Shown piece after piece: positions 4,209 to 31,756 of a stretch of 39,030 nt of DNA. The notes below the pieces were generated by a model. That model had not been told where the DNA came from, did no database searches, and saw only the letters and a list, made by a program, of their open reading frames with translations. Positions within the stretch are counted from its first letter, which is position 1, and each line of letters opens with the position of its first letter. The stretch is taken from NCBI GenBank assembly GCA_044220955.1, contig JBGAQA010000046.1, positions 9,872-48,901 of the forward strand, written 5' to 3'. Made by a program: the position numbers and the translations under genes. Source of the DNA: Sandaracinaceae bacterium. GTDB taxonomy: Bacteria; Myxococcota_A; Polyangia; Polyangiales; Sandaracinaceae.

Positions 4209-4466
4209 TCAGAGCCGGTCGTCCGGCTCGAAGAGGCGCGGGTCGGTGTCCGCCCACACCTCGGGCTCGTGGTGCGCGGTCGCACGCCGCAGATCGACGT
4301 CGCCGCCGCGCGCGTCGAGCGTGTCGACCGTGAGCTCGATCGTGCGATCGCGCAGGCGCACGTGCCCGACGATCGGATGCCCGCCGCGCGTGGGCGGCGG
4401 CGCCTCCCCCGGCGCCGAGCACGCGAGCAGGCCGAGCAGGGTGGTGGCGAGGAGGACGGCGCGCAT
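4209..4466 (-). CDS. Small hypothetical lipoprotein (85 aa), probably leaderless
   Basis: MRAVLLATTLLGLLAC lipobox; TACCTT lies 6 nt upstream of the ATG at 4466. Confidence 0.6.
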   Translation of the reverse strand: MRAVLLATTLLGLLACSAPGEAPPPTRGGHPIVGHVRLRDRTIELTVDTLDARGGDVDLRRATAHHEPEVWADTDPRLFEPDDRL

Positions 4467-4591
4467 GCCGTCAAGGTAAGCGAGAACGAGGCCGCCGAGA
4501 AGCGCCGGCGCCGTCGAGGTCGCCCGCGCCTCCGAGAGCCTCGTGCCCGCGCATACCGACCCTGGACGCCTTCCTCTCCGAGTGCATCGAC

Positions 4592-4807
4592 ATGGCGCAG
4601 GCGTGCGCATACGTGCCCGACGCGATCGTCGGTACGGCCGAGCTGTCCGGCCAGATCGTGAGGGATGGCGGCTCGCTGAGCTTCGACTACAGGTTCTCGG
4701 ACTACGTGGGCCTCGTGGTGCAGGCGACCGGCCCGTTCCCGGTGGCCGATTGCTACCTGACGACGCTCTTCCACGTCGGCTTGGGCGTGAGCGGGTACCT
4801 GCTCTGA
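4592..4807 (+). CDS. Small ORF or gene remnant with amphipathic beta-strand pattern
   Basis: 71 aa with alternating hydrophobic residues (LSFDYRFSDYVGLVVQA, FHVGLGVSGYLL) like the end of a beta-barrel; no signal peptide or clear RBS. Confidence 0.3.
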   Translation: MAQACAYVPDAIVGTAELSGQIVRDGGSLSFDYRFSDYVGLVVQATGPFPVADCYLTTLFHVGLGVSGYLL

Positions 4808-4861
4808 TCGCTCCCGTGCGCTGGGGGATCGTGTCGGCCTCGGAAGACGCCTACGAACCGG

Positions 4862-5160
4862 TCATGGCGCGTCGGTCCCCGTGTCGCGGGCAGGTGGTCC
4901 CGCGTCGCACAGGACGCCCGAGACGTGGACGTGAAGGCGGCTGCCGGCGCAGGTGAGCTGATACGGGCACTGCCAGCACGCCGAGATCCCGTCGCAGGCG
5001 ACGGGCGTGTCGCAGCTCGTTCGGCAGGCGATGCCTGCATCGCCACGGAGCGCGGCGAAGGCCTCGTCGCACGAGTGAACGCCGCCGGCGTCGAGCGCGG
5101 CGTCGCCCCCGCGTTCGACGAACTGGTCTCCCGACAAGCCTCGCCGTCGACCGCGACCAT
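4862..5160 (-). pseudogene. Possible frameshifted Cys-rich secreted protein remnant
   Basis: MVAVDGEACRETSSSNAG (ATG 5160) joins GDAALDAGGVHSCDEAF...CDAGPPARDTGTDAP* if one base is added to the C5 run at 5106-5110. Confidence 0.3.
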
Positions 5161-5204
5161 CGAACCCGATCCCCGAGGCACCCGCGACCTGCGAGCGCCG
5201 CGAG

Positions 5205-5271
5205 CCTCGCCCTCGCCCTCGCCCTCGCCCTCGCCCTCGCCCTCGCCCTCGCCCTCGCCCCTCGCCCCTCG
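5205..5271. repeat. Hexanucleotide microsatellite (CCTCGC)9 plus two degenerate units
   Basis: Nine perfect copies at 5205-5258, followed by CCCTCGC CCCTCG. Confidence 0.95.
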
Positions 5272-5314
5272 AACGCGCGGGTCCACCTTCGCGCCATCGG
5301 TCACGGGCGAGATC

Positions 5315-5545
5315 GTGCTCGGCCTGCCGGAGACGGACGGCGAGATCCTCGCCTGCGCGGGGTGCGGCCGTGTCACGCGCGTCTCGTCGCCGCCGCGCTT
5401 CGGCCTGGTCGCCGGCCTCTGGTGCTCCGAGCACGGGCCGTGCTGCGGCGGCTGCGCCCTCGAGCGCGGGGCGTGGTCGAACGACGACTCGTGCTGCATG
5501 TACCGCGAGGTCGTCGTGGACCGCGACCATCGACCGGATCCCTGA
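5315..5545 (+). CDS. Small Cys-rich putative metal-binding protein (start uncertain)
   Basis: 3' part of ORF 4925..5545: CAGC...WCSEHGPCCGGC...SCCMY, with coding-like codon usage only after the microsatellite; first in-frame GTG at 5315. Confidence 0.45.
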   Translation: MLGLPETDGEILACAGCGRVTRVSSPPRFGLVAGLWCSEHGPCCGGCALERGAWSNDDSCCMYREVVVDRDHRPDP

Positions 5546-5566
5546 ACGGCGACACCACCACGCTGG

Positions 5567-6577
5567 TCACCGGCGCTCTTGGGTGATCTCGGCGCAGCCG
5601 TCCTCGACCGCGAGCGTCGCGAGCGCGCCCTCGATCAGCGTCCACTGCGGCGGCACGTGCCCGACGTCGGCGTCGAAGGCGACGGGCACCGGCAGATCGT
5701 CGAAGAGGCGGTGGAGCGCGTGGACGTACGCGGGCCCGCGCGCCTCGGGCGCCTGCGATCGCCCGAGCACGATCGCCGCGACGCCCTCGAACCACCCCGC
5801 GAGGCGGAGCTGAACGAGCGCGCGCGCTGCTTGTCCGGGCGCGAGCTCGCAGTTCTCGAGGAACACGATGACGCCCTCGTCCGCGTGCTCCCGGACGAAG
5901 CGCGGCACGTCGCCGAAGCGCGTCCCGGCCAGGCTGCTGATCGTGTCGAGGCACCCGCCGACCAGGCGCCCGCGCGCGCGCAGCGGACGGCCGTCGAGCG
6001 TCTGCACGCGCGCGGGCTGATCGAGCTGGAAGGGCGCCTCCGGCCGGCGCTTCCAGTCCACGAACGCCGTCTGGTAGTGCGTCGAGCCGCGCTGCGTGAA
6101 GGGCGCGTCCGAGGACAGCCACGACAGACAGCGCGCGCTGAGGGGGTCGCGCTGGGCGGGCACGAGGTCCATGAGGTTGGGCCCGTGCGCGGAGGCCCAG
6201 CCGAGCTCGAGCAGCATCGGCACGAGCAGCGTGCTGACGTCCGAGTAGCCGAGGATCCACTTCGGGCGGGCCTGGCGCAGCTTCGCGAAGTCCATGCGCG
6301 CGAGCACCTCGATCGCGAGGTCGCCCCCCCAGGGCGGCATGACCGCGTCGAGCTCGTCCGAGAGGAGCGCCCGCATCCAGGCGTCGAGCCGCACCTGCCA
6401 CGGTGCGCTCTCTTCCCCGCGCAGACACGACGACTCGAGGGGCGTGAAGCCGCTCGCGCGCAGCGTCTCCTTCACCAGCTCGAGCCGCGGCGCGAGCGCG
6501 GCGGGGACGGGCGAGCTCGGCGCGACGATGGCGATCTTCGAGCCGGCGCAGAGCGGGCGCGGAAAGCGAGTGTTCAT
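5567..6577 (-). CDS. Peptidase S66 family (LD-carboxypeptidase/MccF-like)
   Basis: KIAIVAPSS, PPWGG, KWILGYSD (catalytic Ser), GRLVGGCLDT, IVFLEN (Glu), DADVGHVPPQWTL (His). Confidence 0.92.
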   Translation of the reverse strand: MNTRFPRPLCAGSKIAIVAPSSPVPAALAPRLELVKETLRASGFTPLESSCLRGEESAPWQVRLDAWMRALLSDELDAVMPPWGGDLAIEVLARMDFAKLRQARPKWILGYSDVSTLLVPMLLELGWASAHGPNLMDLVPAQRDPLSARCLSWLSSDAPFTQRGSTHYQTAFVDWKRRPEAPFQLDQPARVQTLDGRPLRARGRLVGGCLDTISSLAGTRFGDVPRFVREHADEGVIVFLENCELAPGQAARALVQLRLAGWFEGVAAIVLGRSQAPEARGPAYVHALHRLFDDLPVPVAFDADVGHVPPQWTLIEGALATLAVEDGCAEITQERR

Positions 6578-6765
6578 CGCCGCGGAGCTTGTGGCCCGAC
6601 TCGTGAGCGCCGCAAGCGGCGCCCTCGCCCGCGCGCTCGCCCTCGGTGGCGTCCGGGGACCGGCGACTCGCTGCGTCGAGCGGCGCCACCCTGACTCGAC
6701 GAACGCGGCGCTCGAGGATCTGTCGGCGGCTGCCGCGCTCCCGTACCCTCGGCGCGAGCGAGCGC

Positions 6766-7848
6766 ATGGAGCCCCTCGATCACCTGACGGGCGAGATGAG
6801 CGAAACGAGCAGCCTGACGATGCTGCTCGCCTACTCGCTGCTCTACGCGCTCGCAGCCTGCGTCGCGCTCGCCGCCTCCCACGCGGCGAGTCGACGCGCT
6901 CGCGACGCGCAGGCGGCCATCGACGGCGCCCCCTCGCTGCGCGTGGGCGGGGCGCTCGTCCTCGGCGTCGTCGAGACCGAGGGCGACGATCCCGCGATCA
7001 CGATCACGCTGACCGAGGACGGACGCCAGTGGGGCGGCGGCAGCGGCGGGCTCCACCACGAGTGGACCGAGGTCGAGCGCGCATCGAGCGTACGTTCGTT
7101 CCACCTCGTCACCGATCGCAACGAGCGCGTGCGCGTCGAGCCCCCCGCACAGGTGGCGCTCGTCGACCGGTTGCGAGTGGTCGAGCGGCGCGGGACGCGG
7201 CGCGTGCGCGTGGCAGAGCTCACCGAGGGAGAGCGCGCGTCGATCACCGGTCGGCTCCGTCGCGAGACGCCATCGCGGAGAGAGGCAGGCTCGTACCGGA
7301 CAGCGGCCACGGCAGGCGACGCCGGCTGGGTGCTGGACGCCGCGCCGGACGGATCGATGGTGGTCGCGACCGAGTCTCTCGCCGAGCATCACCGCGACTG
7401 GGCGAGGTTCCATCGACGCGCCGCGATCGGCCCGATCGTGCTGCTGCTCGTCGTCAACGCGCTCGCCTACCTGCCGTTCTACGACTTCGTGCTCCACGGC
7501 CAGCGCGTCGTCGGGACCGTCGTACGCCCCGAGCTCTCGTTCAGCTACGACCGCAACGGCAGGCACACTGCCTACCGCGTCCTGGTCTCCCTGCCGGACC
7601 AGCAGGTGTCCCTGCCGGTGTCGCGCGGCGGGTACCTGCTGGCGCGAGAAGGGGCGCCCATCGCGCTGATGCTCACGCCCGGCCGAAGACTGCGGCTCGG
7701 GAGCGAGCCAGGCATCGAGGCGCTCCCGATGGTTCTGCTGCTGATCCCGACACTCACGCTCGCGGTGCTCGTGCTCACCGCCCGCCGGAGCCGGACCGAG
7801 TGGTGGGAGCAACCACGCGTACGGACGCGAGGCAGGGGACCGCTCTGA
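6766..7848 (+). CDS. Membrane protein, GIDE-like beta domain plus DUF3592-like domain
   Basis: ATG 6766 is in frame with ORF 6646..7848. Three TM segments. RVRVAELTEGERASITGRL resembles GIDE-type domains; HGQRVVGTVV...YRVLVSL...GAPIALML resembles DUF3592. Confidence 0.6.
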   Translation: MEPLDHLTGEMSETSSLTMLLAYSLLYALAACVALAASHAASRRARDAQAAIDGAPSLRVGGALVLGVVETEGDDPAITITLTEDGRQWGGGSGGLHHEWTEVERASSVRSFHLVTDRNERVRVEPPAQVALVDRLRVVERRGTRRVRVAELTEGERASITGRLRRETPSRREAGSYRTAATAGDAGWVLDAAPDGSMVVATESLAEHHRDWARFHRRAAIGPIVLLLVVNALAYLPFYDFVLHGQRVVGTVVRPELSFSYDRNGRHTAYRVLVSLPDQQVSLPVSRGGYLLAREGAPIALMLTPGRRLRLGSEPGIEALPMVLLLIPTLTLAVLVLTARRSRTEWWEQPRVRTRGRGPL

Positions 7849-23690: not shown

Positions 23691-25658
23691 TCACTCCCTC
23701 ACGGCATACACGAACGCCACCTGCGGGAAGCTCCGGTAGCGCTCGACGATCGTCGCGTGCGGCACGCGCGTCCCGTCGACGTACTGCGCGGCCAGCGCCT
23801 CGGCCGCCGCGCGGTCGCCGCTCGCCTTGATGTGCATCACGCGCCGCATGATCGCCTCGCACGCCGCCGGCAGCCTCGCGAAGTCGATGCTGAACGCGCC
23901 CTGGCTCGCGCCATCGGCCGCCGTCGCAGCCGGATCCCAGCTCAGCGCGCCCTCGTCGAGCAGGATGCCGATCTGGATCGCGGCGAGCTGCGAGTACGGC
24001 TTGCGACCGCCGGTCGGCGTGTACATGCCGCGCGAGATGTGTCCGAACGCCCAGACGATCGAGTCGACGTAGATCTCGCGCTCTTGCTGCTCGGTGAGCA
24101 CACCTCGCTGGCGCAGCCAGTCGATGAAGAAGAGGCCACCGCTCTGCGCCTTGAGCTCCTCGAGCATCGACGCGAGGCCCCCGCCGAACGCCTCCGCGTC
24201 GGTCTGCCCCGCGGGCGTCCGGTACTCGTGCGAGGGGCCGAGGTTGTGCGTGGCCTCGTGCAGGATCGTGCTGAGCAGGCCCGGCGTGGCGTCGTCGGTG
24301 TACGACGCCATCGAGGCGCTCGAGAGCAGGGACATCGCCTGCGCGCGGCGCCGCGCGAGCGAGTCGGCGTCGGTGTAGAGGTTGCTCATCGCGACGGTCC
24401 GGCCGCGGCCCTCGTCGGTCACCGGACCCCAGTTCGGCAGGCTCTGGCCGATCGTCGCGCCGAACGCGTCGCGATCGTCGCCGGCGTTGACCACGATCTC
24501 GATGAAGTCGGGGAGCTGGAACGACACCTCGCGCGCCGCGTACTCGCCGGGCACGAGCGCCGCGAGCGCGCCCTCCATGTCGCTGCGGAGCGGCGCGAGG
24601 CGGTCCTGCCAGACGAGCGAGCCCTGATCGATGCGGGCGAAGGTGAGGTGGAAGCCCGCCTTCTGGCTGCAGGGCTCCCAGTACGTCTCGTCCGGACCGA
24701 CCCGGACGTACCAGCGCGAGTTGCGGACGCTCATGCGCGACCACGCCTCGTCCGCCGGCAGCCAGTCGTTCGTCTCGAAGCTCGTGGCCGCGGCGCGCAG
24801 GTACGTGACGAGCGCCGTCTCCGCCGGATCCGTCATGGCGTCGGCCGCCGCGCGCAGCTCGGCGGCGATCGGCCGCATGTACTCCTCGTAGGCGACCGTG
24901 TAGGGCACGGCGATCAGCGTGGCGTCCGGCCCCGCGCGCACGACGGTGAAGGGCGAGAGCAGCGTGGTCGCGTCCGGCCGGGCCTCGAGCGTGGCGCAGA
25001 AGCCCTCGTCGGCCTGGAGCTCGAGCGGGTACACGTCGACCGGCTGGCGCGGCGCGCCCTCGATCGCCGAGCACGCGGGATCGGACTCCGTGACCGACGA
25101 CGCGCACTCCGGCCCCCAGTTGCGGCGGAAGACGCTGGCGCTCGCCGCGTCGCCCGCGGGCAGGCGCGCCTGCATCGCGTCCATCCCGACCTGGTGCGCG
25201 TAGAGGCGGTCCATGAGCGCGGCGACCGCGAGCATGTGGTGCGCGAACGCTCGGTGCGCCTCGGGCAGACCCGTGAGATCGGTCTCGACGAGCGTCGGGG
25301 CGGCGTGATCGAGCTCGGCGAGGATGGCGGCCTGGCGCGGGTCGGCAGGCACGGCGGCCCTCTCTTGCGCGCGGATGGCCGCCACGACGCGCTCGTAGTC
25401 GCTGGTGAACGCCCCGCCCGAGACCCAGCTCTCGGCGCTCGGGTAGAACAGCAGCGAGCGCACCTCGTCGGGATCGGGCGCGCCGCTCCCGTTCGTGTCG
25501 CTCGCCCAGAAGAGCGGCTCGTTCAGCCGCATGGCGAGCTGGTTGAAGCGCAGCCGATCGGCGCTGCTCCGGGAGGGCGTGGTGCTGCCGTGCGAGGAGC
25601 CGCCGCACGCCGCGAGCGGGAGGGACCAGAGGACCAGGACACGAAAGGCTGCGCGCAT
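23691..25658 (-). CDS. Lipoprotein metallopeptidase, M49 (DPP III)-like with HExxH
   Basis: Lipobox LPLAAC; GPDETYW, TIGQSLPN, LHEATHNLGP and LEELKA motifs. Confidence 0.82.
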   Translation of the reverse strand: MRAAFRVLVLWSLPLAACGGSSHGSTTPSRSSADRLRFNQLAMRLNEPLFWASDTNGSGAPDPDEVRSLLFYPSAESWVSGGAFTSDYERVVAAIRAQERAAVPADPRQAAILAELDHAAPTLVETDLTGLPEAHRAFAHHMLAVAALMDRLYAHQVGMDAMQARLPAGDAASASVFRRNWGPECASSVTESDPACSAIEGAPRQPVDVYPLELQADEGFCATLEARPDATTLLSPFTVVRAGPDATLIAVPYTVAYEEYMRPIAAELRAAADAMTDPAETALVTYLRAAATSFETNDWLPADEAWSRMSVRNSRWYVRVGPDETYWEPCSQKAGFHLTFARIDQGSLVWQDRLAPLRSDMEGALAALVPGEYAAREVSFQLPDFIEIVVNAGDDRDAFGATIGQSLPNWGPVTDEGRGRTVAMSNLYTDADSLARRRAQAMSLLSSASMASYTDDATPGLLSTILHEATHNLGPSHEYRTPAGQTDAEAFGGGLASMLEELKAQSGGLFFIDWLRQRGVLTEQQEREIYVDSIVWAFGHISRGMYTPTGGRKPYSQLAAIQIGILLDEGALSWDPAATAADGASQGAFSIDFARLPAACEAIMRRVMHIKASGDRAAAEALAAQYVDGTRVPHATIVERYRSFPQVAFVYAVRE

Positions 25659-27879: not shown

Positions 27880-28626
27880 TCAGGAGAGGAGGCGCTCGAA
27901 CGTCACCGTGCGCAGCGCGTGGCGCATCACCAGCGCCGCAGCCACCCCGTAGACGACGGCGATGCAGAGCGGCCGTACGACGCCGCCGGGCAAGAGAGCG
28001 CTCCCGACGAGCGTCACGATGATCGTCGGCGCGAGCATGGCCCCGCCGATGTTGTTCGCCGTGCGGAAGTCCTTGGCGAGCAAGGACATCAGGAGCGCGA
28101 TGCTCGTCGAGAGCGCGAGCCCCGCGACGAGGAGCACGGGCAGGCCCGCCACCTGCTCGATCGACGCCGCGCCGATCGCCGGTAGCACGAGCACGTCGAG
28201 CAGCAGGAGCGGCACGCTCATCAGGGACGCGGCGGCGAGCGTCGCGAGGAGCTTGGCCACCATCACCTGCTCGATGCGGACCGGCAGCGCCACCAGCAGC
28301 TCCAGCGTGCGGCGCTCGCGCTCGCTGATCAGCAGGTACGACGCCATCATCGTCGGGAGCACCATCCCCACGACGGCCACGAAGAGCGGCAGCATCGCGC
28401 CCGCGAGGTGCCGGGGCTCCTGGGTCATGTCGCCGAGCAGGCCGAACTGCATGCTGGGCGGCGGTGGGCGGCCGTGCGGCGGCGTGCGCGACGCGGTCGC
28501 GAGCAGCGAGGGGATGAGCCCGAGCATGAAGATCGGCAGGAACGCTCCGGTCGCGATCGCGGCCTTCGAGGCGACGAGCTGGCGCCACTCCTTCGCGAAG
28601 AGGACGCGGACTTCGTGGTCGATCAC
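27880..28626 (-). CDS. ABC-2 type transporter permease
   Basis: LFAKEWRQL, SERERRTLELLVALPV, AKLLA, about 6 TM helices; GTG 28626 overlaps the upstream TGA. Confidence 0.88.
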   Translation of the reverse strand: MIDHEVRVLFAKEWRQLVASKAAIATGAFLPIFMLGLIPSLLATASRTPPHGRPPPPSMQFGLLGDMTQEPRHLAGAMLPLFVAVVGMVLPTMMASYLLISERERRTLELLVALPVRIEQVMVAKLLATLAAASLMSVPLLLLDVLVLPAIGAASIEQVAGLPVLLVAGLALSTSIALLMSLLAKDFRTANNIGGAMLAPTIIVTLVGSALLPGGVVRPLCIAVVYGVAAALVMRHALRTVTFERLLS

Positions 28627-30371
28627 GGCGGCGCCCCCGCCGCGCTCGGGCTCGCGCTCTCGGCGGGCGGAACGCTCGGGGTGACGCCGCCCGTCTCGAC
28701 GACGCGGAAGAAGAGATCCTCGAGCGAGGGCTTCACGATGCGGCACTCGAAAACGTCGAGCCCGGCCGCGAGCAGCTCGCGCAGGAGCCCCGGGGCCCGC
28801 GCCTCGGCGTCGAACATCGCAACCCGAACGTCGCCCTCCTCGAGCTCCGGCGCGTGGCCGCGCGCCTTCAGCGCCTCGACGAGCCCCGCGGCGCCGCCGC
28901 GGGCGCGCAGCGCGATCCGGCTCTGGACCTTGCCGCGGAGCTCCTCGAGGCTGGCATGAACGACGACCTCTCCGGCCCTCAGGATGATGACCGAGTCGCA
29001 GAGCTCCTCGGCCTCGGCGAGGTTGTGCGTGCACAGGAGCGTGGTCCGGGAGGCGCTCGCCTCGCGCACCGCCTCGATCATCTGCCGCGACGCCACCGGA
29101 TCGAGCCCCGCGGAGGGCTCGTCGAGCACGAGCACGTCGGGATGCGGCAAGAGCGCCGCCGCGAGCACGAGCCGACGCTGCATGCCGCCCGAGAGCTCGC
29201 TCGTGGGCCGGTCGAGCACCTCCTCGAGGCCGAGACGCCGCGCCGCGTCGAGCGCCGTGTCGCCTCGCCCGTAGAGGTCGCGCACGAGCGAGAGGTAGCC
29301 ACGGACGTCGAGGTGCTCGTACATCCCCGGCTGCTGCGGGACGATCCCGACGCGGCGCTTCTTCTCGAGGAACGTGGGGTCGTCGCTGGCGTCTCCGAGC
29401 ACGAAGACGAACCCGCGCGTCGGCGCGATCGCGCCCGTGATCATCCGGATCGTCGTCGTCTTCCCCGCGCCGTTGGGACCGAGCAGGCACGCGCGCTCGC
29501 CCTCGCGGAGCGTGAACGAGACGCCGCGGAGCGCACGGACCTCGCCGTACTCCTTCTCCGCGCGCACGACCTCGATGGGTGCGCCGCTCGAAGCGGGGCG
29601 CGCCTCTCGCGCAGAGACCGCGAGCTTCGGGAGCGCGCGATAGGTCAGCGCCATCGTGAGCAGGCTGACGGGCAGGGTCGACAAGACGAAGAGCTCGGTC
29701 ACGCCGATGCCGAACGGGCGCAGCGGCACGAGCATGCCGTCGCTCACGGCGTGCATGGCGATGGCGAGCACGAGCCAGCGCTCGCGGCGCTCGACGACGG
29801 CGCGCATCACGAGCGTGCTCGCCGCGACGTGGAACGGGATCGTGCAGAGCCGCTCCATCGTCCCGAGGAGCGCGCCCGTCACGCCGTCTCGATGGTACGC
29901 GTCGATGCCCGCGCGGATGGGCTCGAGCTGCGCCGCGTCGACACCGAGGTTCTCGATGCCGACCCGGTCGATCACCAGCACCTGCAGGAGCGCGTAGCCG
30001 GCGAGCAGCCCGACGAACGCCGACTCGATGCCGCCGTGGCCGGCGCCGTACGCGAGCGCGTGCACTCCCGTTCGCTCCCTCGTGAGCACCCAGCGCATGG
30101 CCACGAAGCGCGCCCCCTCCTCGAAGAGGCCGGCCGCCAGACCGTAGTAGGCGCCTGCGGCCGGGACGAACGCGGGCGAGTGCGGGTCCGGGAGCAGCGA
30201 CTGCGTGTAGGCGAGGAAGGGCAGGTGCCCGACCTGCGAGACGACGAAGGCGAGCGCGCCGACGACCACGGCGCGCAGGCCGATGCCCCAGCGACGACGC
30301 AGGGCGCGCACGAGGGCGATCGGAGCGCCGATCGTCACGACCACCTGCAAGAACGTCGCGAGCTCGGCCAT
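28623..30371 (-). CDS. Fusion: YhfC/PrsW-type intramembrane glutamic protease + ABC ATP-binding domain
   Basis: N-half: GALAFVVSQ, GLAAGLFEEGAR, YGAGHGGIES, MERL..IPFH, AIAMHAVSD. C-half: GPNGAGKTT, LSGGMQRR, VLVLDEPSAGLDP, LCTHN. One uninterrupted frame from ATG 30371. Confidence 0.88.
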   Translation of the reverse strand: MAELATFLQVVVTIGAPIALVRALRRRWGIGLRAVVVGALAFVVSQVGHLPFLAYTQSLLPDPHSPAFVPAAGAYYGLAAGLFEEGARFVAMRWVLTRERTGVHALAYGAGHGGIESAFVGLLAGYALLQVLVIDRVGIENLGVDAAQLEPIRAGIDAYHRDGVTGALLGTMERLCTIPFHVAASTLVMRAVVERRERWLVLAIAMHAVSDGMLVPLRPFGIGVTELFVLSTLPVSLLTMALTYRALPKLAVSAREARPASSGAPIEVVRAEKEYGEVRALRGVSFTLREGERACLLGPNGAGKTTTIRMITGAIAPTRGFVFVLGDASDDPTFLEKKRRVGIVPQQPGMYEHLDVRGYLSLVRDLYGRGDTALDAARRLGLEEVLDRPTSELSGGMQRRLVLAAALLPHPDVLVLDEPSAGLDPVASRQMIEAVREASASRTTLLCTHNLAEAEELCDSVIILRAGEVVVHASLEELRGKVQSRIALRARGGAAGLVEALKARGHAPELEEGDVRVAMFDAEARAPGLLRELLAAGLDVFECRIVKPSLEDLFFRVVETGGVTPSVPPAESASPSAAGAPP

Positions 30372-30475
30372 GTGTCGCGCCCCCGAGCCGACTCTACGCG
30401 ATCGCAACCATCCTATGGCGCCGCTCGTGCGATAGATCGACGTACCCGGCCGCACGTCCGAACCCGTCTGCCTCC

Positions 30476-31756
30476 ATGCGCCTGACCGCCACGCTCGTGC
30501 TCTTGGCTTCCCTCGCGCTCCCCGCGACGGCGCGCGCGCAGCCGGGGCCCCCTCCGGACGGTCTCTACGAGGACTTCCCGTCGATGTTCCTCGCGCCGGG
30601 AGCCCCGCTGACCGCGCCCAGCACGCTGCTCCCGCGCTGGGTCGACGTTCGCACCCGCGGGCGCGTGACGACCGTCACGTTCGAGCCGGACGAGCGCGTC
30701 GTGTGGCGCATCACCTGGGGCCCGCACGGACCGACGCGCAAGACGACGCTCGTCGACGGCGCGGTGTGGACGCGCTCGCGCTTCGCGTACGACGCCGCGG
30801 GCCACCTCGCGACCAAGGAGGTGAGCGGGCCGGGCGCCGCCGGCGGCCTCACGTTCACCTACACGACCGACCCGACGACGGGCGAGGTACGGACGCGCAG
30901 CGCGACGCTTCCGGCCACGTACCCGTCGAGCAGCACGACGGTCGCGGAGCGCGTGGAGGTCACTCGCAGCCCCGCCGGAGTCACCGTGACCGTGACCCGC
31001 GACGGGCACACCGCGCGCCGGGATCGCTACGATCCGGACCTGCGCCTGCTCGAGTCGCGCTTCTTCGACGTCCGCGGGACCGAGACCGCGCGGCTGACCT
31101 ACGCGCGCGACGCGAGCGGCAGCCTGCGACGAATCCGGCGCCGCATCGGTCACCACGGCCACGCCGTCGACCCGACCCACCCGGACCCGACGGTGACGTC
31201 GAGCGACGTGCAGGCGCTGGCGTTCTGCCCCGTCGAGCACCACGAGGCGCTGCTCCTCCTGGGCGCGCCGACGACCGCCACCGACGAGGGCCGCGGTGCG
31301 CGCAGGGAGATCCACACCGACTTCGCCCCCGACACCTGCTGGATGAACGCGACCTCGGGTCTCGACTTCGACGCGACCGGGCTGCTCGTCCAGCGCACGG
31401 TCGGATGCATCTGCGGCTTCTGCGTCGCGGCCGCCGCGATCGACCCGGACGACGCGGCGAGCGCGCTCGGGGTCGCTCGGCACTGGACGCACGGGCCCTG
31501 GGTGCGCATCGACGGCACCGTCGAGGTGACGATCGAGCACGCGCTCGTGACCCCGTCGGGCCCGCGGGCGGCCGGAACGCTCGCCCCCGGAGACGTCGTG
31601 CTCGCCGCGGACGGGACACCCCACGTCGTCGTCTCGGTCGAGCTGCTTCCCGACGACGGAGCGCGGCTCGGCGTGAACCTCACGACCGAGGACGGGACTT
31701 TCGCCGCCGGCGGCCTGCTCTTCGTGTCCGAGACCGCGCGCGCCTGCGAGCCCTGA
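30476..31756 (+). CDS. Secreted protein with YD-like repeats and C-terminal Hint-like domain
   Basis: Signal peptide ending ARA-Q. YD-like strands FAYDAAGHL, RYDPDLRL, LTYARDASGSL. C-terminal C-VAA...VEVTIEH...G..AAGTLAPGDVV...VVSVE...NL..EDGTFAAGGLL. Confidence 0.72.
   Translation: MRLTATLVLLASLALPATARAQPGPPPDGLYEDFPSMFLAPGAPLTAPSTLLPRWVDVRTRGRVTTVTFEPDERVVWRITWGPHGPTRKTTLVDGAVWTRSRFAYDAAGHLATKEVSGPGAAGGLTFTYTTDPTTGEVRTRSATLPATYPSSSTTVAERVEVTRSPAGVTVTVTRDGHTARRDRYDPDLRLLESRFFDVRGTETARLTYARDASGSLRRIRRRIGHHGHAVDPTHPDPTVTSSDVQALAFCPVEHHEALLLLGAPTTATDEGRGARREIHTDFAPDTCWMNATSGLDFDATGLLVQRTVGCICGFCVAAAAIDPDDAASALGVARHWTHGPWVRIDGTVEVTIEHALVTPSGPRAAGTLAPGDVVLAADGTPHVVVSVELLPDDGARLGVNLTTEDGTFAAGGLLFVSETARACEP

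Follow-up and report, generated by a model that had tools for sequence, protein, structure and literature searches.

A YhfC membrane domain fused to the ATPase of an ABC-2 exporter in Sandaracinaceae, a candidate intramembrane protease coupled to a transporter

A 39,030-nucleotide stretch from a Sandaracinaceae bacterium (assembly GCA_044220955.1, contig JBGAQA010000046.1, positions 9,872 to 48,901 of the forward strand; hereafter the window) encodes a YhfC membrane domain fused in frame to the ATPase of an ATP-binding cassette (ABC) exporter, followed by the gene of an ABC-2 permease. The fusion is real, rare and patchy. There is good support for a functional link between the YhfC domain and this ABC-2 transporter: in-frame fusions occur in many genomes, triple fusions take in the permease as well, the same parts form unfused operons, and the permease co-occurs with the fusion. 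The YhfC domain retains the motifs of glutamic intramembrane proteases and may cut membrane-lodged peptides that the exporter would then expel.

The fusion gene and its integrity

The minus-strand frame from 30371 to 28623 translates into 582 residues with no internal stop. The features of the two-gene locus are as follows.

28623..30371, minus strand: YhfC-ABC ATPase fusion gene (P0001), 582 aa (translation, Pfam, motifs, model, contigs)
29643..30371, minus strand: YhfC domain, residues 1-243, seven membrane helices, predicted N-out/C-in, with motifs E84-E85-R88, H112-E116, E173-R174-H181 and H207-D211 (Pfam, model, topology)
29586..29642, minus strand: linker, ~19 aa, Pro/Ala-rich (alignment, contigs)
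28932..29585, minus strand: nucleotide-binding domain of ABC-2 type (DrrA/NosF-like) with Walker A, LSGG signature, Walker B and H-loop (Pfam, NCBIfam, motifs)
28692..28931, minus strand: C-terminal, DrrA1-3_C-like ATPase domain and, behind it, a Pro/Ala tail of low confidence, residues 563-582 (weak Pfam match, model)
27880..28626, minus strand: ABC-2 permease gene (P0002), 248 aa, in which loop 105-117 is the predicted coupling helix (Pfam ABC2_membrane families, complex model)

Pfam matches YhfC (PF10086) at residues 17-213 (E 4.6e-34, 118 bits against a cut-off of 24.2) and ABC_tran at residues 281-420 (E 2.4e-29), with a weak DrrA1-3_C match at residues 509-558 that lies under its cut-off. 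The YhfC part carries EEGAR (84-88), GHGGIE (111-116), ER..H (173-181) and HAVSD (207-211), and the ATPase part Walker A GPNGAGKT (298-305), LSGG (393-396), DEP (417-419) and H449. Translation, Pfam and the model thereby bear out the initial annotation, made from the DNA letters alone, which had described a single 582-residue frame with about seven transmembrane helices, these motifs, a linker and a complete ATPase; its broader YhfC/PrsW/CPBP-clan assignment narrows to YhfC, since Pfam supports neither PrsW nor CPBP proper. AlphaFold2 folds the whole chain into two well-formed parts (mean predicted local distance difference test score, pLDDT, 91; predicted template-modelling score 0.63). The ATPase is closest to NosF and DrrA-type proteins, and its complete motif set, together with a DrrA-like C-terminal domain that is weak in Pfam, places it with ABC-2/type V exporters. 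The GTG start of the permease overlaps the TGA stop of the fusion gene (GTGA), forming a translationally coupled pair, and the permease itself, also predicted initially, is recovered at 28626-27880 on the minus strand with ABC2_membrane family matches.

The linker is open in every intact relative, spanning 17-30 aa (one split match of a hidden Markov model aside), and it is bridged gap-free by contig record 7 of run X2 (29448-30289, 1 other letter) and contig record 17 of run X4 (29448-30600, 11 other letters). The two runs represent two independent studies, neither of them the possible source of the assembly, and the sole listed linker change, at 29637, is a silent third position of Arg245. 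A stop or frameshift in the linker, which would have undone the initial prediction, is therefore absent from these records. Against an intact frame stands one X2 contig with a 1-base deletion at 29576 (depth 7.65 of 13.1); the deletion is present in neither X2 record 7, X4 nor X9, and the contig may derive from another organism, as most contig records are only 90-95% alike. An assembly artefact was rejected, as independent contigs and homologs carry the same fusion. The window DNA is present in sludge and bioreactor metagenomes. Coverage by the RNA run spans 180 bases of the ATPase part only and is uninformative on expression. No sigma-70-like promoter was found at the operon, where a single intragenic terminator-like match is at chance level, and no conserved upstream element emerged from seven aligned leaders.

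Four gene architectures and repeated fusion

Searching proteins of 320-1019 residues with the YhfC part returned 18 matches, comprising the query, 11 other full-length fusions (counted as full-length 90% clusters), one fragment and five YhfC proteins with no ATPase. A profile of YhfC plus the ATPase core, run against 1.84 billion representatives, recovered 12 full-length fusion clusters (50% identity) among its best 150 matches, the rest being multi-ATPase proteins among which weaker fusions may be hidden. Within the family, YhfC is present in 14 of 32 genomes, and in all 14 one copy runs on into an ABC ATPase, including G003, frameshifted inside the YhfC part, and G025, cut by contig ends. 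In the phylum sample it is found in 11 of 401 genomes, of which four carry the fusion, one an unfused operon and six free YhfC only. Relatives are thus not always split into two genes, the outcome that would have counted against the initial reading, and unfused operons exist beside the fusions.

YhfC and the transporter parts are arranged in four ways. The first, as in the window, is a YhfC-ATPase gene followed by a permease gene. The second is a single YhfC-ATPase-permease chain of 828-853 residues (G008, G009, G012, P0020 and P0287). The third consists of three separate genes in the same order (G150, L088 and L124, and L113 as far as its contig reaches), and in the fourth an ATPase gene precedes a YhfC-permease fusion (L087, L096). 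Among 27 metagenome YhfC loci with flanking sequence, three show the third arrangement, two the fourth, and none is fused to an ATPase; these loci remained from 119 matches of a pattern that favours GC-rich codons, after 85 non-YhfC matches and 7 more lacking flanks were set aside. Loci L002 and L003 were rejected as chance matches.

Two lineages are represented among the fused ATPases, and both have free relatives; a single clade of the 18 fused rows against 17 free ATPases is rejected (approximately unbiased test, p-AU 4e-36). The ATPase tree requires at least four changes of state, although, as a quick and unrooted tree, it leaves gains and losses indistinguishable. From these sequence comparisons, YhfC and the ATPase have likely been fused several separate times; fusion counts were not based on the YhfC tree, which is poorly resolved at depth. 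Although kin are not independent, finding YhfC joined to a permease as well as to ATPases of two lineages provides strong guilt-by-association evidence.

Free YhfC proteins usually measure ~250-300 aa. Free window-type ATPases were found neither in the 401 phylum genomes, beyond the three fusions, nor in the 28 genomes of a family picked by marker search (0/28), nor on plasmids; a viral search gave one weak match. A second, free yhfC gene of ~265 codons with intact motifs lies at G000:C37:4979-5776 (L005/L059), with no ABC genes within 13 kb. P0015, P0016, P0018 and L045/L054 (G217) represent another type of YhfC fusion, whose N-terminal part is a soluble, lipoprotein-like domain (DUF3108 in P0018). 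At L033 (G043:C713) the order is reversed, with a permease directly upstream of a tail-less free yhfC, and the contig ends before any ATPase.

The permease and its coupling to the fusion

The window-type permease is present in 10 of 32 family genomes, exactly those with the window-type fusion. Across the phylum sample it turns up in 3 of 401 genomes, each of which has the fusion as well. G356 keeps both genes, although on different contigs. In a complex model the ATPase-permease pair scored 0.66 against 0.00 for the best of three controls, with contact agreement of at least 87% and partner pLDDT of at least 71; 116 of 157 solved pairs reach the mark, as do 2 of 215 mismatched ones. The interface is of the textbook type between an ATPase and a coupling helix, and the pass may stem from likeness to solved transporters. 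Pfam, gene coupling, triple fusions and, possibly by such likeness, the complex model all identify the ABC2_membrane permease as the cognate partner.

Two further loci touch on the permease. Downstream of the fusion gene in G356 (L052:2888-5929), an open reading frame (ORF) that we take to be VgrG-like stands in place of the permease. In G000 a second window-type permease, 67% identical, occupies C108:2310-3059 (L064/L188) on a 5.1-kb contig with neither an ATPase nor yhfC; it could be an alternative partner for the fusion protein.

A C-terminal tail in the unfused operons

Where an unfused YhfC lies directly upstream of the ATPase, it ends in a proline-rich stretch and D/A-S-R-Y/F in four of four cases, compared with 0 of 35 others examined; three of the four are close kin, leaving about two independent cases. 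The tail motif ends 41 of 105 free homologs, mostly of 288-297 residues and from Anaerolineales where named, and the fusions lack it. In L088 and L124, a protein with a Big_7 domain, a transmembrane segment and a zinc ribbon follows the permease directly and terminates, like the YhfC encoded in its operon, in a D-E-S-R-Y/F tail. Judging from this pattern, the D-S-R-Y/F tail is possibly a docking tag onto the transporter, replaced by the linker in the fusions.

The unfused operon in L124 is preceded (4392-7783) by an SPFH gene, the gene of a small PLDc_N membrane protein and another ATPase-permease pair, which places YhfC there between two ABC-2 transporters.

Motifs, fold and topology of the YhfC domain

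Residues E84, E85, R88, H112, E116, E173, R174, H181 and H207 are invariant in 28/28 fusions, and position 211 is D or N in all 28; the second and third YhfC motifs map to residues of this set. Glutamic intramembrane proteases are characterized by adjacent glutamates with a following Arg, two histidines and an Asn/Asp near the second His (PMC5874806), and EExxxR is their active-site motif (10.1101/2023.06.07.544157; PMC5874806). The YhfC domain displays this set as E84, E85 and R88, H112/H181, H207 and D211. As its residues match those described for Rce1 and the clan, catalysis by the YhfC domain is favoured, as a prediction from clan motifs.

Modelled alone, the YhfC part forms seven membrane helices and one loop helix (pLDDT 96.7). 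Its closest solved fold is APH-1B (Z 18.1, root-mean-square deviation (rmsd) 4.0, 218 aligned residues), giving it a seven-helix APH-1-like architecture, followed by chain 4 of the TMCO1 translocon (Z 15.0, rmsd 3.6, 214 aligned), which we take to be TMEM147. Rce1 is much further (Z 7.4, rmsd 4.1, 141 aligned), as is SpdC (Z 7.9). Foldseek returned no match for the YhfC model at E 0.001, ranking APH-1 first, and neither the YhfC nor the permease profile found a sequence relative of solved structure.

Basic residues in loops 1, 3 and 5 and after helix 7 predict an N-out, C-in topology, which places the ATPase in the cytoplasm. In Rce1 the mouth of the cavity is on the cytosolic side, and the motif-1 Arg lies opposite, at the cavity base (PMC5874806); the opening is thus on the side where the motif-1 helix starts. 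The motif-1 helix of the YhfC domain runs from outside to inside, the reverse of Rce1, so the active-site cavity would open to the periplasmic side; by this analogy the comparison suggests an outward-facing active site. A periplasm-facing cavity would suit substrates encountered in the outer leaflet more than a precursor from the cytoplasm.

Proposed mechanism

If it is built like known type V exporters, the complex would pair two fusion chains with two permeases, giving a DrrAB/NosFY-type exporter with two built-in YhfC domains. These domains, predicted glutamic intramembrane proteases, would cleave helices or peptides that are stuck in the inner membrane, and the exporter would then expel the cut pieces at the expense of ATP. 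Candidate substrates are membrane-active peptides and the remnant helices of signal sequences and membrane anchors. In the unfused operons the D-S-R-Y/F tail would dock YhfC on the transporter, and the fusion would provide a covalent link in place of this tag. We consider such a cut-and-clear exporter to have about an even chance of being correct.

The precedents come from EcsAB, in which mutations block RasP (PMC5413573), and from PptAB, which exports Eep-cut peptides (PMC4173765); both exporters have been proposed to clear peptides from the membrane together with RasP and Eep (PMC4173765, PMC5413573). Prokaryotic clan members are linked to protection from antimicrobial peptides (PMC5874806). 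Free yhfC lies beside genes of the SdpI peptide-immunity family in 4 of the 27 scanned loci, in three lineages, and SdpI is an immunity protein (PMC2910880). These SdpI neighbours, the antimicrobial-peptide links of the clan and the EcsAB/PptAB precedent support a peptide substrate class, and the patchy distribution fits an accessory role in defence or quality control. The initial annotation had proposed a two-gene machine for cleavage and export or for membrane-peptide clearance or immunity, with the protease also anchoring the ATPase; the coupling of a protease-like domain to an exporter holds through fusions, operons and co-occurrence, and the part that finds no support is precursor export, as no conserved substrate gene is adjacent and the predicted topology suggests an outward-facing active site. 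We further propose, tentatively and at less than even confidence, a class of ATP-driven machines, so far undescribed, that clear the membrane and in which YhfC proteins, the bacterial proteins nearest in fold to gamma-secretase APH-1, would do the proteolysis. YhfC would be tail-docked on a type V exporter or fused to the exporter's ATPase or permease; at the extreme, one chain with 13 helices would form a half-transporter able to cut membrane-embedded peptides and expel them.

Several findings speak against this proposal. The complex model, a check named in the initial annotation, reproduces ATPase-permease binding and leaves the YhfC domain unplaced, all confident contacts lying between ATPase and permease. 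No ABC-2 gene is adjacent in 22 of the 27 metagenome YhfC loci (some flanks being short), and more than 100 free ATPases are 50-58% identical to that of the window. Free YhfC homologs keep the motif residues almost as well as the fusions, so these are not transporter-specific. No conserved small ORF, precursor or substrate gene was found beside the window-type loci, whose flanks differ between genera. The structural ranking, in which APH-1 and a translocon subunit stand far above Rce1, adds to these, as do the literature points taken up in the next paragraph.

Alternative explanations

The YhfC domain could instead be non-proteolytic, either a scaffold or substrate-presenting subunit, as APH-1, LnsB and SpdC are, or an enzyme of lipid or acyl chemistry, with the transporter moving a lipid or lipidated molecule. 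This is unlikely in our estimate, and it is the best placed of the alternatives. Its basis is the APH-1, translocon and SpdC matches given above, the co-option of CPBP-fold proteins for non-catalytic roles (PMC7387801), the membership of B. subtilis yhfC in the FapR lipid-synthesis regulon (PMC4525379), and the fact that no assay of YhfC activity was found in the literature searched. However, APH-1, SpdC and LnsB are non-catalytic members with degenerate motifs (PMC7387801), whereas the fusions keep every motif residue in 28/28 cases, and no lipid-pathway gene conserved beside the module was found.

A second possibility, which we regard as more doubtful, is maturation and export in the manner of peptidase-containing ABC transporters (PCATs), with a leader or anchor removed from one dedicated precursor that leaves the cell as a signal peptide, bacteriocin or surface protein. 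The architecture parallels PCATs, PrsW domains have been proposed to process and release fused toxins (PMC3482391), the Eep/PptAB route yields pheromones (PMC4173765), and a MYXO-CTERM-like protein follows the permease in 4/4 loci of genus g7. That neighbour occurs in one genus only, however, and window-type loci share no precursor. Nor does YhfC appear to be a general myxosortase, given eight other Rce1-like genes in G000 and the failure to find YhfC in 18 of 32 family genomes. No adaptor or outer-membrane channel gene is adjacent.

Less probable again is regulated proteolysis, in which the ABC part would gate or power the protease with no export, and a single-pass protein, for example one with a signal peptide, Ig-like domain, transmembrane segment and zinc ribbon, would be cut to release its cytoplasmic part. 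The Big_7 protein of L088 and L124, placed right after the permease and tailed like YhfC, matches this description; EcsAB influences RasP proteolysis (PMC5413573), and the protease that APH-1 assists acts on type I membrane proteins (PMC7387801). The Big_7 protein was not found in any of the five genomes with the fusion or the G150 operon that were searched, a search with no positive control. The tail motif occurs at 4 of 6105 predicted G000 genes, none of them a plausible membrane client.

An incidental read-through fusion of neighbours with separate jobs, leaving YhfC at most a membrane anchor, could draw on the rarity of the fusion beside unfused YhfC genes and the unfused ATPases of this lineage, both far more common, and on the G003 frameshift, but it is highly improbable given repeated fusion with two ATPase lineages and with the permease, invariant motifs, and a ratio of nonsynonymous to synonymous substitution (dN/dS) of 0.15 between the YhfC parts of the closest pair, the values for distant pairs (0.6-0.7, YhfC) being unreliable because synonymous sites saturate early in GC-rich DNA.

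Neighbouring genes

In genus g7 (L034-L037), the protein with the MYXO-CTERM-like end is a Cys-rich surface protein of 554-585 aa encoded on the same strand as the permease. Divergent from the fusion gene, window positions 30476-31756 on the plus strand encode a 426-aa protein with a signal-peptide-like start and Cys motifs. It has a homolog in the same place in G004 and gives no Pfam, NCBIfam or Atlas match; its C-terminus recalls, in our judgement, a Hint domain. A 655-aa lipoprotein-like gene with an HExxH motif (23691-25658, minus strand) likewise gives no Pfam or NCBIfam match. The gene lies close to the operon in four genomes (G000, G002, G003 and G004). In G004 it comes immediately after the permease, and in G003 it is on the same strand. 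Its product is possibly a downstream peptidase, although the gene was seen in this genus only.

Comparison with known systems

The nearest catalogued family is NF041647 (NCBIfam, ABC permease subunit/CPBP intramembrane protease), in which a predicted CPBP-clan protease is likewise joined covalently to an ABC-2 exporter subunit; the initial statement that known CPBP fusions are to permeases corresponds to this entry. Its protease is CPBP/Rce1-like and C-terminal on the permease, whereas here YhfC is N-terminal on the ATPase, sometimes with the permease behind, and the window permease scores 15 bits against a cut-off of 435. RasP/EcsAB of B. subtilis and Eep/PptAB of enterococci and streptococci also pair an intramembrane protease with an ABC exporter of hydrophobic peptides (PMC5413573, PMC4173765), but theirs is an M50 zinc protease encoded by a separate, unlinked gene, in contrast to a predicted glutamic-type clan member fused to the ATPase. 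An integrative RasP-EcsA model has been deposited in the PDB (9a6w).

PCATs, like the fusion, combine protease and ATPase in one chain, but their protease is a C39 domain, soluble and cytoplasmic, carried by a type IV exporter. The role of C39 in them has been described (PMC3482391). Here Pfam gives no C39 or ABC_membrane match, the N-terminal domain is YhfC rather than a C39 on a fused membrane domain-ATPase, the permease is a type V ABC-2 protein, and no precursor gene was found. The YhfC family (DUF2324, PF10086) shares its sequence, motifs and seven-helix fold, closest to APH-1 of gamma-secretase, with the window domain; its members are usually free, and B. subtilis yhfC is tied to lipid synthesis rather than to an ABC exporter (PMC4525379). 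The unfused yhfC-ATPase-permease operon (L088, L113, L124, G150) has the same three parts in the same order, its closest named proteins being from Anaerolineales, but differs in its separate genes, its ATPase lineage, its tailed YhfC and, often, a Big_7-zinc-ribbon gene.

Neither a YhfC-ABC link nor the unfused operon was found in the literature searched. That the architecture is already named was rejected, as databases name one half only, YhfC protease or ABC-2 ATP-binding protein, and no NCBIfam model of the fusion is among the best 25 of 188 families; the initial concern that it might be a common annotated architecture falls away within that scope. New here are the joining of YhfC to the ATPase, its extension to a triple fusion in one chain, the evidence that fusion happened repeatedly, and the tail, whereas a CPBP-clan protease joined to an ABC-2 permease is already catalogued as NF041647.

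Four independent gene architectures tie YhfC, a family for which neither an assayed activity nor a partner was found in the literature searched, to one kind of exporter, giving it a concrete partner. The 830-aa triple fusion is one gene that should encode the whole machine. If the machine both cuts and exports, it would correspond to a hard-wired RasP/EcsAB made with a protease of another clan, and its YhfC domain would be a catalytically intact relative of APH-1.

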